This document shows positions 36,418 through 63,993 of a stretch of DNA of 64,000 nt, one piece after another. A program made the translations under genes and the position numbers. The notes beneath the pieces are model-generated. The model saw only the letters and a program-made list of their open reading frames with translations. It was not told where the DNA came from and did not search any database. Location: positions 1 to 64,000 of the IMG/VR virus record IMGVR_UViG_3300044652_000025. One strand, given 5' to 3'. This stretch comes from a virus. Lineage: Duplodnaviria > Caudoviricetes. Each line of letters starts with the position of its first letter. Position 1 is the stretch's first letter.

Positions 36418-36543
36418 TCAGCCCTGCGGCTGCGGCTGCGGCTGGTTGGGGTCCGGCTGGTTCGGCTGAGGCTGGTTCGGGTCCGGCTGCTGGGGCTGGT
36501 TCGGGTCAGGCTGGTTCGGCTGGTTCGGCTGCTGGGTGGCCAT
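36418..36543 (-). CDS. 41-aa Gln/Pro/Asn repeat microprotein
   Basis: MATQQPNQPNQPDPNQPQQPDPNQPQPNQPDPNQPQPQPQG with AGGAGG SD. Confidence 0.6.
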   Translation of the reverse strand: MATQQPNQPNQPDPNQPQQPDPNQPQPNQPDPNQPQPQPQG

Positions 36544-36745: not shown

Positions 36746-37552
36746 TCACACCTTCTTATAGTCGGGAGACCAAACCCCGTCTTCACTGCGCTTGAAATCG
36801 ACCATGAGGGCTGGGGCTTCCTCGGTCATGATGTGGGCCACCTTGTCGAAGACGAGGCGGATCTCCTCCTCGGCCCCGGCGTCGGTGCGCTGCTGGATGA
36901 TCCAGCGGATGGCCCGGATGTTAAAGGTAGCCAGGATCGAGGTTGCGACACCGTCGGGGGCGAAGCGCCGCATGAAGCTGGTCTTGGCCTTCTTCTCGTG
37001 GAAGGGTACCCCAGGCTCGTCGAGGCCGAAGTGCCCGGCCATCCACTGCTGGTGGTCCTCCATCAGCCGCAGGAGGTGTTCGGAGCGGCTCACCAGCTGC
37101 TCATCCTCCAGCGCCCAGTCCGGGAACCAGAAGGGGATGTCGGTAAGGCGCACGAATCTCATTGACTCTTGCGAATACGCGCAGCCCGCTCTATGACGAA
37201 TCAACTCATGCGTTAGAACTCTGGACACATCCTGGAACACGAAGCTGTAGTTGGCGTGCTCCACCACACTGCCGTGGAGGGACCGCAGGATGTTCTCCAG
37301 GTAGTCGTCGTGGTCCTCCCGGACCTTGGTGACGTTGGGGTTGAGGCCGGGCTCCCAGGAGCGGTAGCAGAGCCGTCCCCCAAACTCGGTGAGGTACTCC
37401 CCCGCCCGCCCGTCGATGTCGTGGTCGTCGCCATAGGCCCGGAGCCGGTCCATCCAGGCGTTGCCCCGGATGTCGGTCAGGTACTGGTCCACCGCCACCC
37501 AGTCGATCTGGGGCTTGGCGATGAGCCGGACCTTGGGGTGGACGCGCTTCAT
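36746..37552 (-). CDS. thyX: Flavin-dependent thymidylate synthase
   Basis: GRLCYRSW, HGSVVEH, SRVLTHELIRHRAGCAYSQESMRF (RHR..x..S motif), AEEEIR; start re-assigned to MKRVHPK. Confidence 0.95.
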   Translation of the reverse strand: MKRVHPKVRLIAKPQIDWVAVDQYLTDIRGNAWMDRLRAYGDDHDIDGRAGEYLTEFGGRLCYRSWEPGLNPNVTKVREDHDDYLENILRSLHGSVVEHANYSFVFQDVSRVLTHELIRHRAGCAYSQESMRFVRLTDIPFWFPDWALEDEQLVSRSEHLLRLMEDHQQWMAGHFGLDEPGVPFHEKKAKTSFMRRFAPDGVATSILATFNIRAIRWIIQQRTDAGAEEEIRLVFDKVAHIMTEEAPALMVDFKRSEDGVWSPDYKKV

Positions 37553-57993: not shown

Positions 57994-58701
57994 TTATCGG
58001 GCAAAGATGAGGAGCACCTCCGCCTCGGCCCGGGACTCGTGGTTGGCACCGCGCCTCATCCTGGGGGTGACGATCTCGTGGCGGGCGATGAGCGTGAAGC
58101 CGATCGACTCGCAGATCGATCGATGGGTCTCGACGACGGGCTCTCTCCGGCGCTGACCGCGGTGGGTCCGGTAGCAGTCGCTGACGTTGAGGACGAACGT
58201 CCCCGACCGGGTGAGGGGATCGTAGGGCCGCAGTACCCGATAGACCTCCTGCCAGGCGGCGTCGTGGAAGCGCCAGTAGGCGGGCTGCCAGCAGTAGAGG
58301 GTGCCGCTGTTGGCGGGATCCAGGAGCCGGGTCTCGTCGCCGGTCATCCGCCGGAGGTCGTGGGTGTAGCTCCGGCGGTGGGAGCCGTCCTTGGCCATGT
58401 GGGAGTCGGACATCCTGTTGCCGAACACCGGGCTCACCATGACCGCGTCGATGCTCTCGTCCTCGAAGGGGAGGGCCAGGGCGTTGCCCACCCGGGTGTG
58501 GGGGTGACAGGCCGCCCACTCCGGCTCGATCTCGATACCGATGGTCTCCCGCCCGGCCTGGGCCAGGTCATGGACGCGTCCGATGCCCGCCATGGGGTCG
58601 AGGACGACGCCGGTGTCGGGGAGGATCTGGTGGTTCGCGATGAAGCGGAGGATGGCCTGGCTGTACGGCGCCGGGTGGATGGGCTTGGTGGCGGTCGTCA
58701 T
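57994..58701 (-). CDS. DNA methyltransferase (N4-C/N6-A type)
   Basis: HPAPY, VVLDPMAGIG (motif I), GIEIEP, VMVSPVFGN (SPPY-like), EVYRVLRP. Confidence 0.8.
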   Translation of the reverse strand: MTTATKPIHPAPYSQAILRFIANHQILPDTGVVLDPMAGIGRVHDLAQAGRETIGIEIEPEWAACHPHTRVGNALALPFEDESIDAVMVSPVFGNRMSDSHMAKDGSHRRSYTHDLRRMTGDETRLLDPANSGTLYCWQPAYWRFHDAAWQEVYRVLRPYDPLTRSGTFVLNVSDCYRTHRGQRRREPVVETHRSICESIGFTLIARHEIVTPRMRRGANHESRAEAEVLLIFAR

Positions 58702-60719
58702 CGTCTCCTCCGGGCCGGTGACGTCGGCATCCCGGGCCTGCGCCTGCCCTTGCCGAAGCCCGAGAGGGCATCGTGGGTCTCGGTCTGCTGGCCACTGTGG
58801 GGCAGGCCACCCTGGGCGGTCCCTCCCACCGGTAGCTCGGCCAGGGTCTTGCCCAGGAAGGCCGCGATCTCGGTGCCGATGAGTTCGTAGGTGCAGATGG
58901 CCAGGCAGTCACTCACGTCTTTCGTTTGTACCGGTCCTGAGGTGGGGTGGTCAACCTTGTTTGTTCCCGCCTCCTGGAGGAAGGTCAACTCCAGGTCCGC
59001 CAGTTCGTGATACGGAGCATGGACGAGTCCCAATCCCAAGGCCGTTTTAAATGTTTCATACGTCTTCCAGTTCAAAGGACCAGTAGCGTCCCGCTCGTAG
59101 ATGGTAACCCGCTTCGGGTAGTTAGCGCTACGGGCGTGCTTACGGAGACGCTGGATCAAAGCCACAGAGTTCCACTGGTCGAAGGACAATTCGTTCGGCA
59201 TGAAGGCGTCCATGTCGACGATGATGTCGTCGGCGATGGCGTCGTAGTCGATCTCGTGGTTCTCGTAGTCACCCGGCAGCCAGGCGTGGATCTTGTCGAA
59301 GACGACGTGCGGGAGACCGCGGTCGTCGTGCCCGGCGACGTGGGCGATGGCCCAGCCGAAGTTGGCGCCGCTCTTGGACGGGTCGCCGTGGGCTCGGTAG
59401 GTCCGACTCAGGATCCCTTGGTGCTGCATCGTCAGGACGTCGCTCTCGGTCGGCCAGGGCTTCCACATGTCAGCGATCCGGTCCGGCCGGAGGTACGCGT
59501 CCAAGACGCTGGCCCAATGAGCGCGCCGCTCGACGGCGAACGTTTCAGGATTGGCAGCTTCTAACCGCTGCATCTCGGCGTCGAAGGTCTGGACCGCGTT
59601 GCGCAGGGCCGGGAAGAAGATCGGCCGCGACACCTGGGGGACGGCGTCGCGGATGTGGGCCGGGGGTGGGATCACCCGCTCCGGCCGGGCCTCCAGCCGG
59701 TGGTGAGGATCCGCGGTGCGCTCCCAGTCAACGTAGGTGTCCCAGCTTGCCAACTGGGCCATGAAGAGGGCCGGGAAGCTCGGCTTGCCGTCCTCATCGT
59801 GCTGGAGCGCCTTGCTGTAGTTGTCGAAGAACGCCCCCAGCCGCTGCCACGGCGACGACGCCTCCCACAGGAAGCCCCACTGCTGGAACTGGTCGAGGGA
59901 CGGGACGGCCGACTCGTAGACCTCGCTGGCGTCGGCCTTGGCCACGGCCCGGACGACGTGCGCCATCTCATCGAAGAACAACATCGCGCTGGCCGGGCCT
60001 CGGGCGGCCATCGTCGTTGCCTCTCTGGCCTCGATGATGAAGGTGGCCATGTCGGCCTCGGTCCCGATGCCTCGGTCGTGGCGGTCGAGCATCCTGATGA
60101 AGTCGTGCGGGGCGTAGACGGTGAAGCTCTCCCCCAGGACCCGGCTGATGTAGGGAGCGAAGCACGGCGCCCCGACGATGACGTTGTTCAAGTCCTTCCA
60201 CTGATGCGCTCGGGCCTGCTCCCGCTTACCGGCGAAGGCCATGGTGGCGATCTGCTTGTCGCGGTCGATTCCGAAGTGACCTTGCGGGTCTCCGAGCGAC
60301 AGGTAGTTCCACAAGACGTACGACCCGGCCAGGGCACCGAGGTAGCCCTTGCCGCCACGTCGACCGATGGGCAGGACCACCTCTCTGAACCACTTCCGGC
60401 CCTCGGCCTTGTTGATCTCGATCCGCTCGAAAATGTCAACAACGAGACCGTTGTTGCCCTCGCCCCGTTCGTCAGCCGACTCCCGGAACTTCGTCGTCCA
60501 TTCGTCAACGACCTCGTAGTCGTAGTCGGTCAGCAGGTCGTCACGAAGGAAAATCAACTTCAACAATGTGGCTTGCCTCGGGTACAGCGTCCGGCCCAAA
60601 TATGCGTCCGAGAGAATGAACTCAATCGGGTCCGGGACCTGAGCCTCAAATCCCGCGACGAGTTCAAAGACCCGCAGGGGGTCGAGGTCGGGCATGAATC
60701 GTCGGGTCCTGGCGGGCAT
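58698..60719 (-). CDS. terL: Terminase large subunit
   Basis: LYPRQ adenine-binding motif, IGRRGGKG Walker A, LFFDEMAH Walker B, HGDPS and KDVSD nuclease acidic residues, FDQWNS. Confidence 0.9.
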   Translation of the reverse strand: MPARTRRFMPDLDPLRVFELVAGFEAQVPDPIEFILSDAYLGRTLYPRQATLLKLIFLRDDLLTDYDYEVVDEWTTKFRESADERGEGNNGLVVDIFERIEINKAEGRKWFREVVLPIGRRGGKGYLGALAGSYVLWNYLSLGDPQGHFGIDRDKQIATMAFAGKREQARAHQWKDLNNVIVGAPCFAPYISRVLGESFTVYAPHDFIRMLDRHDRGIGTEADMATFIIEAREATTMAARGPASAMLFFDEMAHVVRAVAKADASEVYESAVPSLDQFQQWGFLWEASSPWQRLGAFFDNYSKALQHDEDGKPSFPALFMAQLASWDTYVDWERTADPHHRLEARPERVIPPPAHIRDAVPQVSRPIFFPALRNAVQTFDAEMQRLEAANPETFAVERRAHWASVLDAYLRPDRIADMWKPWPTESDVLTMQHQGILSRTYRAHGDPSKSGANFGWAIAHVAGHDDRGLPHVVFDKIHAWLPGDYENHEIDYDAIADDIIVDMDAFMPNELSFDQWNSVALIQRLRKHARSANYPKRVTIYERDATGPLNWKTYETFKTALGLGLVHAPYHELADLELTFLQEAGTNKVDHPTSGPVQTKDVSDCLAICTYELIGTEIAAFLGKTLAELPVGGTAQGGLPHSGQQTETHDALSGFGKGRRRPGMPTSPARRRR

Positions 60720-60740
60720 CGTTATCCACTCTAAGTGAAA

Positions 60741-60767
60741 CGGTCGAGGGCTTCATACCCTCGACCG
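60741..60767 (-). terminator. Intrinsic terminator closing pentamer array 2
   Basis: CGGTCGAGGG-TATGAAG-CCCTCGACCG followed by TTTCACTT on the minus strand. Confidence 0.7.
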
Positions 60768-60769
60768 CT

Positions 60770-61333
60770 CCACCCATGACTGCCATGCCGAACTCGAACC
60801 TGACGAGCATCGCCGCGCCAAGCCCCGCCGACCCACGCCTTGACTGCCGAGTCGAGACCAGCCTACGCCCGCCTAACCGCGGCGAACCCAGCCCTGACTG
60901 CCGAGCCATTCCACGTCCAGACACGCCGTGCCATGACTGCCGCGGCACGACCCGCCTCTCCTAGCCTACGCGTGCCTCACCTCTCCGAGGCTGCCGGGCC
61001 AGGCCCAACCATCGCTGGTCAAGCCCAGCCAAGCCGCACCCTGACTGCCTCGCCCTAACGGGCCATGCCTGTCCATGCACCTCCTCAACGGGCCGTACCT
61101 TGCCACTGCTGCCAGGCCAACGCCTGCCGTGATGTACCAAGCCCTGCCGAGACGAGACCGTCCCCTCCACACCGCTACTGCCCTGACCTACCGGGCCTAG
61201 CCTCTACACGCCCGTCCTAGCCATTGCTGGCGAGCCGAGCCGAACCGCTCCATGACCTTGCGCACTTGCCCTGCCATACCAAGACTGCCGAGCCTTGCCG
61301 CGGCCTGCCTAGCCTCACCAAACCGAGGCTGCC
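60770..61333 (-). ncRNA. Pentamer-phased array 2 (about 10 units; GGCAG-N4 followed by 6-12 G(G/T/C)(C/T/A)NN), candidate guide RNAs
   Basis: e.g. GGCAG TCAG GGCTG GGTTC GCCGC GGTTA GGCGG GCGTA GGCTG GTCTC GACTC GGCAG. Confidence 0.8.
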
Positions 61334-61337
61334 ATTC

Positions 61338-61364
61338 ACCGGGGCCGGTGGCTCCGACCCCGGT
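61338..61364 (-). other. 11-bp stem-loop at the 5' end of array 2
   Basis: ACCGGGGUCGG-AGCCA-CCGGCCCCGGU; fully paired (one G-U) only as minus-strand RNA. Confidence 0.6.
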
Positions 61365-61370
61365 CGCTGG

Positions 61371-61871
61371 CTAGACCGCCTCGGCCTCTCCGTCGTCGTC
61401 GTCGCGGTCGATGTCATCGAGCGCGGCCCAGACTCCGGCCAGAGCACTGAGGTGCCGGTACCGGCGCCGCAGAGCCTGGAGGGCGACCAACGCATCTTTG
61501 AGCATCTGATTTCTCAGATCCTCGCGGTCGACCACCGTCTGAGTGTTGGTGTAGCCACGGTCACCGTCCTTCCGGACCGAGACGAAGGCGACGATGGGTT
61601 CGTCACTGCCCTCGACCACGATGCGGATGTCTCTGATGATCCGGCGAGCCTGACTCAGCCAATACTGCTCGGCGGCGTGGTTTTTGTCCCACCCACGCCA
61701 GTCGGCCATGTTGTGCAACGGCGAGTTGCGCTTCTTGGCCTCGGCTACCAACGCGTGCGGGGTGCAGACACCGTCGCGGTCCTCGATCTTCTTGATCTCG
61801 CCGTAGACGATGTTGGCGTCGACACCATGGCTCTGCTTCCACGACACGAACGCTGTCGGTTCTCCACTCAT
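61371..61871 (-). CDS. Accessory protein of the RAMP/array locus (166 aa)
   Basis: AAAGGAGGTG SD; TP.ALV.EA....SPLH....WD...AAEQY.L.QAR.IIR.I motif recalled from phage proteins next to RAMP-like genes. Confidence 0.75.
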   Translation of the reverse strand: MSGEPTAFVSWKQSHGVDANIVYGEIKKIEDRDGVCTPHALVAEAKKRNSPLHNMADWRGWDKNHAAEQYWLSQARRIIRDIRIVVEGSDEPIVAFVSVRKDGDRGYTNTQTVVDREDLRNQMLKDALVALQALRRRYRHLSALAGVWAALDDIDRDDDDGEAEAV

Positions 61872-61894
61872 TTTTCAATCACCTCCTTTCGATC

Positions 61895-62929
61895 CTGCCG
61901 TGACAAGCCAAACCGATCCGGGCCAAGCCCAAACGGGCCTAACCGCGCCAAGCCACGACTGCCGTTACCAACCCGGACCTGCCTGGCCGAACCTGACCGG
62001 GACGAGCCTTGCCTGGACTGGCGAGGCTTGCCGGGCCGTAACACGACTAGACCGGCCTATCCCTGCCCTGACTGCCATGCCTAAACCTGCCCTGGCTTGC
62101 CATGACGACCTAGCCCTACCACTGCTGCCGTGACCAGCCTGGCCGGTCCACGACGCTCCTAGCCGAGCCGTACCTTGCCTCGTCTGCCACGCCCTGCGAA
62201 GCCATCGCTTGCCCATCCTGACCATGGCTGCCGAGCCGGGACCGTCCCAAGCCGGGCACACCTAGCCACTCCATGACTGCCAAACCGGGACCTGCCTGGC
62301 CTGGACACACCTGGCCGAGCCGACCCGCACCTTGCCACTGCTGCCATGACGAACCGCTCCATGCCGTTGCGTGCCGCGACCTGCCAAGCCTTGGCGAGGC
62401 TGCCGAGACCTGACTGGCGACGCCAAGCCGGGCCTGGACATCCCGCGCAACGCCCTGACTCGACTGCCCTGCCAAACCCATCCGGGCCGTGACATGCCAC
62501 CCGAGCCGTGCCTGGGCTGCCGTGCCGCACCTGACCTCGACGGGACCAGACCATCCTGGCCCAGCCAAGCGCAGACCCGCCTCGACTGCCCTACCTCGCC
62601 AAGCCCTGCCTCGGCCCGACCCGGAGATCCAGGCCGAGGCTGGCTGGCCACACCGTGCCTCGACGCTGCGAGACATGCACCGCCTAGCCCATCCTCTACT
62701 GCCATGACCGGCCATGCGTTGCCACGGCGAGCCTTGGCCGGACCGGACCTGACGATCCAAGCCCAACCATGGCTGCCGCTCCACTGCTGCCCTGACAAGC
62801 CTTGGCTCGACGTGCCCCTGCGGGAGTCGCCGGGCCAAGCCACTGCTGCCATGCCGTGACCCGCCATGACATACCGGGGCGCACACCGCCCATACATGAC
62901 CGGGCGAGCCGAGCCATGCCGTGTCTGCC
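61895..62929 (-). ncRNA. Pentamer-phased array 1 (about 18 units delimited by GGCAG-N4), candidate guide RNAs
   Basis: e.g. GGCAG TCGT GGCTT GGCGC GGTTA GGCCC GTTTG GGCTT GGCCC GGATC GGTTT GGCTT GTCAC GGCAG. Confidence 0.8.
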
Positions 62930-62954
62930 AAGGGGTCACTTACTGCTCCGGGTC

Positions 62955-63593
62955 CTAGTTGCTGACCTGGAACATTCCGTACGAACCGGACGCCGACTTC
63001 GGCGCCGACGGCCGCCACTCACCAACCCCACCGAGACCGGCGGCGTCGACCAGAGCGAAGACCGACGAGGCGTCGAGCATGTGCGGCAGGTACGTGACCT
63101 TGAGGATGGCCGACCACGGCCAGAAGCCAGCCCGGTAGCGGATGTCAGCGACACCCGACTCCAACCTGACCATGTCCTCACGCATGTGAGGCTCGGCCGA
63201 AATCGCCACCAGGTCGGTCCCCTCCTCGGGGTTGATGAAGAGGGCGGCCTTGGCCTGGACCATGGTCAAGCCGTCGAAGTGCCTCACGGCGCCGACGAGA
63301 GCGGCCTTGAAGGCGGTGGCGGGGATGGCGCAGCGGCCGTCGGGGAGCCGGTAGATGGACGACTCGTAGTCGGCCTGCGGGTCCTTCGGCTCCTTCTTCG
63401 GCTTGGTGCCGCGAGCCATCTGGCTCTCCAACATCATTCTCTTGGCCTTCTCGGACCAGCGGTGGGTGATCAACTCGGAGGTGCCCTCGATCGGGACCTC
63501 GATGGTGACGCGCTCCAGGCGCTTCAGGACGACGGTGGGACCCTCGGTGACGCCAGCGACCTTCCCGGCGCCATTGGTTTTGGTCATTGCCAT
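62955..63593 (-). CDS. RAMP superfamily Cas7/Csm3-like RNA-binding protein (212 aa)
   Basis: IEGTSELITH (first strand), IPATAFKAALVGA (like RAMP IP..S.KG), DIRYRA.F..W, Gly-rich loop AAGLGGVGEWRP...SGSYGMFQV; start at MAMTKT with ACAGGAG SD. Confidence 0.75.
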   Translation of the reverse strand: MAMTKTNGAGKVAGVTEGPTVVLKRLERVTIEVPIEGTSELITHRWSEKAKRMMLESQMARGTKPKKEPKDPQADYESSIYRLPDGRCAIPATAFKAALVGAVRHFDGLTMVQAKAALFINPEEGTDLVAISAEPHMREDMVRLESGVADIRYRAGFWPWSAILKVTYLPHMLDASSVFALVDAAGLGGVGEWRPSAPKSASGSYGMFQVSN

Positions 63594-63633
63594 TGGTTCT
63601 GCTCCTGTAGTCGGAAGTGAACTGTTGCAAGTA

Positions 63634-63661
63634 ACCTTAGCACGTATAACGGGTCCGTCAA
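63634..63661 (-). promoter_or_regulatory. Promoter TTGACG-16-(TGC)TAAGGT for the RAMP operon
   Basis: Extended -10 and -35 boxes ~40 nt upstream of the start. Confidence 0.6.
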
Positions 63662-63735
63662 CCGGGGTCCTTCGGACATATGGGCGCGAAAATGCCCCCT
63701 CCACTGGGGAAGGGGGCGAGATCCTGTCTTCTCTG

Positions 63736-63993
63736 CTAGGCGGCGTCAGCGAAGGCGGTGGCCATCGGGGTCCCGGCGTAGGCGGCGTTGGCGTCGTCGG
63801 TGCCGACCGTCACCCGGGGCGGATCGATCCCGCACGGCCACTCGGCGGTGATCCCCCAGGGGCGGCAGTCGCAGCCGCCGCAGCGGTAGTCGCCGTCCTC
63901 CCAGCCGCCGGTGTTGATGAAGTAGTGGGTCTTGCGGTTGGCCTCGATCTCCTCGGCGGTCCCGGGGAACGACATCGGCATGTTGACGGCCAC
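63736..63993 (-). CDS. Cys-containing hypothetical protein (85 aa)
   Basis: RCGGCDCRPWG...WPCG..PPR motif. Confidence 0.55.
   Translation of the reverse strand: MAVNMPMSFPGTAEEIEANRKTHYFINTGGWEDGDYRCGGCDCRPWGITAEWPCGIDPPRVTVGTDDANAAYAGTPMATAFADAA

Follow-up and report, generated by a model that had tools for sequence, protein, structure and literature searches.

The DNA analysed here (the window) covers the first 64 kb of a viral record of 151,490 bp with 66% G+C, from a 151-kb soil actinophage. The locus contains two arrays of 5-nt repeats, which flank a gene for a 166-aa protein, downstream of a gene for a 212-aa protein and just upstream of the large terminase gene (Table 1). The order on the minus strand is vipr, array 1, vap-like gene, array 2 and terL, and all neighbour genes lie on the same strand. 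In a scan of the whole 151,490-bp genome, 5-nt periodicity is sustained only at 60721–61341 and 61841–62941. The genome's only other run, ~9–10 in-phase G[GT][CT]NN pentamers on the plus strand outside the window (G000:C1, ~137265–137320), could be a solo guide or a chance occurrence. A compound tandem repeat at 36433–36536 of the window, CGGCTGGTTCGGGTC-like and with periods of 15, 24, 30 and 39, is unrelated to the arrays. The hairpin 3' of array 2 is a possible transcript end judging by its letters; a consensus terminator scan left it uncalled.

Table 1. Features of the locus, with positions in the window
Feature	Position	Strand	Basis
vipr, 212-aa Cas7-like RAMP (P0121)	62955..63593	-	homologs, fold, Foldseek, phrog_4652
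vrRNA array 1, 18 guide units A1.01–A1.18	61895..62929	-	dynamic-programming parse
unit A1.01	62847..62925	-	NN string fits P-x-M-R-E-D-M region of vipr genes
unit A1.18, final guide ahead of vap	61896..61959	-	near-match to own vap gene
vap-like accessory gene, 166 aa, own GGAGG ribosome-binding site	61371..61871	-	phrog_15946
vrRNA array 2, ~11 units, array 1 grammar	60781..61333	-	dynamic-programming parse
unit A2.11, final guide ahead of terL	60781..60844	-	matches terminase motif
9-bp GC-rich hairpin 3' of array 2, stem GGTCGAGGG/CCCTCGACC, then GTTTCACTT; candidate transcript end	60742..60766	-	from sequence
large terminase (terL), next gene downstream of locus	58698..60719	-	~30% identity to annotated terminases

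The proteins of the locus

VIPR is a CRISPR-related RNA-guided gene silencer with seven known types, which combines a minimal RAMP, named Vipr, with a vap gene and with vrRNAs of 9–16 GGY/NN repeats (10.64898/2026.04.26.720920). The 212-aa protein is predicted to fold as a Cas7/Csm3-type RAMP. Specifically, its AF2 model, calculated with a 44-sequence MSA, has a pLDDT of 87 and a pTM of 0.79. Foldseek returned 64 matches at E ≤ 0.001, with Csm3/Cas7-family chains leading (best E 5.9e-6), and among the matches listed all are CRISPR effector-complex entries; VIA Z is 10.3 over residues 25–212 of Vipr. A 249-aa ORF reaching 63704 is an upstream extension of the 212-aa gene that is absent from homologs. 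AF2 on this ORF alone, as a single sequence, gave no usable model (pLDDT 32), and a PDB sequence search gave no match. Vipr homologs number 5437 at E ≤ 1e-3 and are 195–223 aa long; tblastn of the phage collection found them only in actinophages and one cyanophage. The family has an invariant G-loop motif, GxGG[VI]G[ED]WR. In Vipr of phage SUSP1, D177-W178-R179 of the G-loop contact G1, G2 and Y3 of the repeat (10.64898/2026.04.26.720927), contacts that are echoed by the invariant ..G[ED]WR here.

The 166-aa vap-like gene provides the accessory gene in the operon that is characteristic of VIPR. In 38 of 80 loci, vipr is followed downstream by a same-strand vap homolog, less than 100 nt away in 30 of those, and the pair of vipr and vap homolog is also present in Cheoctovirus mycobacteriophages and some Gordonia phages. 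Look-alikes of the 166-aa protein in an atlas search are viral hypothetical proteins only, in unnamed viral clusters. Pfam has no domain in vipr, vap or terL.

The product of terL is ~30% identical, over 93–98% of its length, to terminases of Gordonia, Rhodococcus and cluster C-type Mycobacterium myophages, and matches phrog_9 weakly; a single-protein terminase search of IMG/VR gave no match. Several of the related large terminases (P0014, P0030, P0041, P0073, P0076, P0115) are 900–1100 aa long and contain intein/LAGLIDADG domains (PF14528, PF14890). In a related phage contig of 127 kb (P0029 relative, Logan SRR11476867), a TROVE/Ro60 gene is placed 1.2 kb downstream of the terminase, and the gap between the two could hold a Y-RNA-like gene.

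Repeat and junction grammar of the arrays

The repeat of the arrays, read on the minus strand, is a G-[G/T]-C-N-N pentamer. Position 1 is G in 92% of pentamers, position 2 is G or T in 90% and position 3 is C in 74%, and positions 4 and 5 are near random. The corresponding entropies are 0.33, 1.37 and 1.29 bits at positions 1–3 and 1.96 and 1.99 bits at positions 4–5. Position 2 is T in 26% of pentamers, which gives a relaxed 'GKY'. Lag-5 identity is 0.46 in array 1 versus 0.26 in the rest of the window, and self-identity at lags 5, 10 and 15 is 0.41–0.46 in array 1 versus 0.26–0.33 elsewhere in the window. Lag-3 identity is depleted in array 1 (0.21 versus 0.33), so array 1 is not coding. The RNA fold of array 2 has z = -1.99, at most a weak sign of structure.

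All 16 kinds of variable dinucleotide (NN) occur, at an entropy of 3.88 out of 4 bits, and no pair of units has more NN in common in register than shuffles have. These values refute the low NN diversity that simple slippage would produce, the outcome that the sequence-only reading had named as fatal to its proposal of a multi-guide library. In a codon-class likelihood of the NN strings, wobble-containing classes fit worst and antisense codon positions 1–2 fit best, a weak trend in which no class is better than a uniform model.

We parsed the arrays into units by dynamic programming on the minus strand. Array 1 starts with a leader junction GGCA/G at 62929–62925 (the slash marks the boundary), followed by 18 units; array 2 starts with a leader junction GGCA/G at 61333–61329, followed by ~11 units. 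The 18 junctions of array 1 consist of 16 GGCAG and 2 GCCAG, and the phase slips by -1 at each. Most units contain 9–15 repeats and are 44–79 nt long. The parse recovered, in order, every junction that the sequence-only reading had listed (ACAC, CAGT, CAGT, CCAT, TAGA, CCTC, TCGA, CCCA, TCGA, CCTC, CAGT, TCAT, CCAT, ACGA, CAGT, TCAG, TCCA and TCGT), together with its two GCCAG junctions and its single-pentamer unit (62787–62774), and confirmed the NN string that it gave for the last unit. That list lacks two more -1 slips, neither of them at GGCA: gggt at 62502–62499 and ggtc at 62110–62107. They sit inside units 8 and 15, splitting otherwise normal units, and look like later 1-nt deletions.

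The boundary between units is best taken to be a truncated repeat of 4 nt, GGCA, and the following G is position 1 of the next unit. GGCA precedes 15 of 19 slips, yet opens only 19% of pentamers (binomial P = 3e-8). So described, each unit of array 1 begins at the shared G and ends with the truncated repeat GGCA, and its first pentamer has the form G-Y-M-N-N. At every boundary a 4-nt repeat is followed by the G that opens the next unit; units abut directly, and the only constant element is GGCA(G). The junctions proposed before as 'GGCAG plus 4 nt' are real as positions, but the delimiter is better redrawn: because the G after GGCA opens the pentamer of the next unit, the '4 nt' ends in two guide bases, and the break itself is the truncated GGCA.

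Other punctuation was searched for between and after the units. No structured 3' tail or pseudoknot of the type II, SUSP1-like kind follows the repeat tracts, and no hammerhead ribozymes lie between guides. Rfam has no match at E ≤ 1 in 60400–63800 other than a chance-level Chlorobi-1 match in the vipr gene. Arrays 1 and 2, the array of mycobacteriophage Donkeykong and 35 of 86 arrays of relatives start with GGCA right after a non-repeat leader, which argues that GGCA is itself a start or stop signal, not merely the tail of a preceding guide.

The same arrangement is widespread among relatives. G-skewed, same-strand 5-nt arrays lie beside a vipr homolog in 75 of 80 IMG/VR loci. Over the 80 loci there are 710 slips of -1, 145 of +1 and fewer than 100 others; GGCA accounts for 482 of the 710 slips of -1 (68%), and units between two GGCA slips peak at 10–11 repeats, inside the published range of 9–16, most having 9–14. 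Other lineages have GGCC or GGCT (L085, L086) or GGCG/TTCA (L032) at their junctions. Since the letters differ among lineages, the constant element is the 4-nt length, and the letters are lineage-specific. The same grammar is found in cultured Mycobacterium smegmatis phages, including Donkeykong, Saal and Brocalys, in which the array is annotated as a protein gene. Specifically, the Donkeykong array with GGCA junctions (NC_051648.1, ~36870–37256; L088:3480–3866) lies just upstream of the vipr homolog gp49, near the immunity region, and is overlain by the annotated CDS gp48 ('hypothetical protein'), which is probably not a protein gene. A blastn search of the array against 50,697 phage records gave no match.

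Comparison of closely related contigs shows how the arrays change. A contig from another JGI sample (L006) is ~98.5% identical and contains both arrays. Apart from one central segment, which lacks ~125 nt and has ~45 nt that differ, the arrays are distinguished by five substitutions only. The 127-nt in-register deletion in L006 (62476–62604) recurs in a contig from an independent metagenome run on rhizosphere (X11). It fuses two units in pentamer register and does not remove whole units. Because the units are joined in register, the change points to recombination between similar repeats and not to a process like spacer acquisition. Single contigs with short flanks have further joints of 87 nt (62242–62330) and 103 nt (60740–60844) and one of 1144 nt that joins array 2 to array 1. 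In four other soil or rhizosphere runs the DNA contigs are broken up over the arrays, with assemblies ending inside them, and they inform only on the parts that they cover.

Candidate targets of the guides

In published VIPR systems, the NN bases pair with DNA under a 1-nt skip rule, and the skipped bases are overwhelmingly wobble positions (10.64898/2026.04.26.720920). Each unit was scored by the skip-1 rule against its own genome and ~0.9 Mb of related loci, with 100 order-shuffles and skips of 0, 2 and 3 as controls. Three units, A1.01, A1.18 and A2.11, beat the 100 shuffles only under skip 1, and the skipped base is codon position 3 for all three. This bears out the suggestion, made from the letters alone, that one target base may be skipped per pentamer so that codon wobble positions are ignored.

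A1.01 has 16 pentamers, counting GACAC and the GGCAG at its end. Against the phage's own vipr gene at 63172–63215(+) it scores 22 of 28 bases without the terminal AG, or 24 of 30 with the 5' AC, and against vipr of two relatives (L039, L040) 24 of 28 without the terminal AG. None of 100 shuffles reaches this match (shuffle maximum 22), and other skip rules give 19. A1.18 matches the own vap gene at 61543–61577(+) with 19 of 24 bases under skip 1 and 13 under skips 0, 2 and 3. A2.11 matches the terL motif ..RLE.ANPETF at 59539–59576(+) with 21 of 24 bases, in the own genome as well as in a relative (L004); shuffles reach at most 19, and the other skips 17–18. All three sites are on the plus strand, antisense to the target genes.

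The matches also define the ends of a guide. The NN of the first pentamer (AC, GT, AA) pairs with the target in all three guides (6 of 6 bases), and the terminal AG of GGCAG matches at 0 of 6 bases on the phage's own copies. Because the first NN pairs and the terminal AG does not, the guide begins at the shared G and ends with the repeat that precedes GGCA.

Each of the three guides near-matches the gene that it abuts: A1.01 follows vipr, A1.18 precedes vap and A2.11 precedes terL. The own copies of vipr, vap and terL match 79–88% of the NN of their guides and are among the best matches that these guides have. Published VIPR systems have no self match at ≥80% (10.64898/2026.04.26.720920), and the own-gene matches here differ from them in this respect and need explanation; they may reflect coincidence, kin exclusion or self-regulation.

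The remaining 20 of the 23 testable units are at background in the ~0.9 Mb searched, in which no target has a perfect or ≥90% NN match. Exact-seed scans of IMG/VR with the first eight dinucleotides gave 12 matches for A2.11 and 17 for A1.01, all in unrelated contigs that have the short peptide motif in common, and neither scan gave a full-length target. The 5' half of A1.01 matches sites for A-P-[HQ]-[IM]-R-[DE]-[DE] in L104, L107, L108, L110, L112, L115 and L117, unrelated and mostly lower-GC viral contigs, which may contain vipr genes of other clades with the same conserved motif. When 350 units of relatives were scored against the ~0.9 Mb, 25 reached ≥85% under skip 1 versus 10–18 under other rules, a slight excess from a test too weak to build on. 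One clear match was found among the guides of relatives, from L045 on the vipr gene of L031 (19/20).

System assignment, mode of action and alternatives

We conclude, with a probability of about 0.9, that array 1 belongs to a phage-encoded VIPR system, as a vrRNA array of the staggered kind. The locus is a VIPR member by fold, array grammar and target rule, and is likened to published Vipr by description. Specifically, a RAMP lies beside the repeats, the pentamers are of the GGY/NN type in the 9–16-repeat range, three guides have skip-1 wobble targets with 79–88% matches, and consecutive units are offset by 1 nt with no spacer element, as expected for a staggered array. The proposal of a multi-guide library is likewise supported by the adjacent Cas7-like RAMP, the same junction grammar in relatives and the published VIPR systems. 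This kind of system, its pairing code and its staggered layout were already published in 2026.

The published staggered VIPR arrays (10.64898/2026.04.26.720920, fig. S18) share with this locus a Vipr RAMP, GGY/NN pentamers and an accessory gene, as well as head-to-tail guides with a 1-nt offset and no structured spacer. By comparison with them, the locus here is unusually large, with ~29 guides in 1.6 kb, and array 1 lies between vipr and vap, beside the terminase. Type II VIPR, known from Escherichia phage SUSP1 and a Pseudomonas fulva prophage, resembles the present system in its 9–16 repeats per guide, 1-nt skip, wobble skip bases, guides against other phages and other VIPR systems, and D/E-W-R G-loop contacts. 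It differs in its vrRNAs, which are ~100 nt long with an invariable 3' pseudoknot tail, whereas the units here are 44–79 nt long and end in a 4-nt truncated repeat only. The backbone proteins of class 1 CRISPR effectors (Csm3, Cmr4, Cas7) have a similar fold (Z ~10), with a thumb that periodically interrupts guide-target pairing. However, their period is 6 with 1 base flipped, compared with a period of 5 with 3 bases sequestered here, and this locus has a single small RAMP and no CRISPR repeats or spacers, Cas10, Cas5 or Cas6. Repeat finders show only the 5-nt periodicity, and the neighbours are vap and terL, which does not fit a class 1 CRISPR-Cas locus. TRAP bound to trp leader RNA in Bacillus is an analogy only: the oligomer reads a triplet ~11 times with 2–3-nt spacers, a 5-nt periodic pattern, but TRAP forms a ring with another fold, the spacers of its sites are uninformative and it does not target DNA.

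In other VIPR types, one Vipr protomer binds each repeat, one protomer holding G1 and G2 and the next one Y3 (10.64898/2026.04.26.720927); protomer per repeat, GGY contacts, DNA targeting and transcriptional silencing are all known there (10.64898/2026.04.26.720920, 10.64898/2026.04.26.720927). By the same mechanism, vipr, array 1, vap and array 2 would be transcribed together from the minus strand, and Vipr would polymerise on the RNA with one protomer per 5-nt repeat, holding G1, G2 and Y3 and exposing N4 and N5. The exposed dinucleotides would pair with double-stranded DNA as NN-x-NN-x, the skipped base being the codon wobble in coding targets. A guide would comprise G, 8–14 repeats and the truncated repeat GGCA. 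Because the terminal repeat has 4 nt and not 5, the next GGY would come one base early, and the filament would fall out of register and end there. The transcript would in this way be partitioned into ~18 + 11 separate guide filaments, with the junction probably cut or trimmed, and the ~29 guides would silence the genes that they match in competing elements, and possibly also genes of the phage itself. We infer three of these steps: that the filament ends at the 4-nt repeat, that the junction is cleaved and that the system serves in competition with related phages. The suggestion made from the letters alone, that the junction is a processing site or filament boundary, is of the same kind and would fit GGCA/G.

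Two readings of the junction within VIPR were weighed. The junction may be a mere register break with no sequence-specific cut at GGCA/G, the array remaining one long RNA that carries many filaments or being trimmed non-specifically by host RNases between them, which is possible though somewhat unlikely. Such a break would agree with the conservation of the 4-nt length and not of the letters across lineages, with the lack of a ribozyme or structured tail between units and with the fact that the published 'staggered arrays with overlapping vrRNAs' are absent from the architectures confirmed by sRNA-seq (10.64898/2026.04.26.720920). However, the letters are strongly fixed within a lineage, the GGCA that opens arrays after a non-repeat leader suggests a recognised signal, and the legend of fig. 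S18 speaks of 'individual processed vrRNAs' (10.64898/2026.04.26.720920). The fuller reading joins two ideas, and as a whole we regard it as rather doubtful: that GGCA/G is a self-contained, tail-less punctuation, and that the locus tunes its own or packaging genes or excludes very close kin. As punctuation, GGCA/G may cap a Vipr filament, nucleate the following one or set its phase, and mark the cut site; as for kin, the targets may be very close relatives with perfect copies and not only unrelated competitors.

Readings outside VIPR have little probability. An RNA sponge or decoy that titrates a competitor's Vipr or a TRAP-like host ring protein would be suggested by the 5-nt periodic triplet, which recalls TRAP binding sites, and by satellites whose solo vrRNAs reportedly exploit a phage's Vipr (10.64898/2026.10.15.759431). 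It is very unlikely, as vipr lies immediately upstream on the same strand, the NN diversity is maximal and not that of arbitrary filler, and three units have codon-phased skip-1 matches. An action as DNA (a terminase pac site, a replication origin or an R-loop-prone G-rich tract upstream of terL) is less probable still. The arrays do lie directly upstream of the large terminase gene, with a strong skew of G over C in the transcribed strand, but they follow vipr and not terL: none was found in the four loci looked up with terminase relatives of 55–69% identity and no vipr. Moreover, the -1 slips give a mean period of 4.9 bp, the wrong direction for the 10.5-bp DNA helix. The TRAP-like sponge, the R-loop origin and the pac site beside terL were dropped once the RAMP fold and the link of its protein family to arrays had been found. 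The probability that the stretch encodes protein, as 300-aa and 225-aa minus-strand ORFs or as a repeat protein, is negligible, even though long ORFs overlap it and callers put ORFs over the arrays of L006 and over that of Donkeykong (gp48). Lag-3 identity is 0.33 in genes, and the absent 3-nt periodicity rules coding out; the reading frame also shifts at every junction, and Pfam is empty for the array-overlapping ORF 61217–61495, the one scanned.

The assignment to VIPR leaves the VIPR concept unchanged, since both the system and the code had appeared in 2026. What is added here is a clade-wide junction rule, the guide boundaries and a link to cultured mycobacteriophages. A large VIPR array of ~29 guides is now placed in a 151-kb soil actinophage, and the staggered layout, unconfirmed experimentally in the discovery paper, obeys a simple conserved rule: a 4-nt GGCA repeat produces a -1 slip every ~10–11 repeats, in at least 75 viral loci. 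Knowing that the shared G opens the guide and that the terminal AG is unread aids target prediction in this VIPR clade. If the reading of GGCA/G as tail-less punctuation is true, it would be a minimal form of multi-guide processing without a Cas6-like enzyme, ribozyme or pseudoknot. The cultured M. smegmatis carriers make array processing and targeting directly testable.
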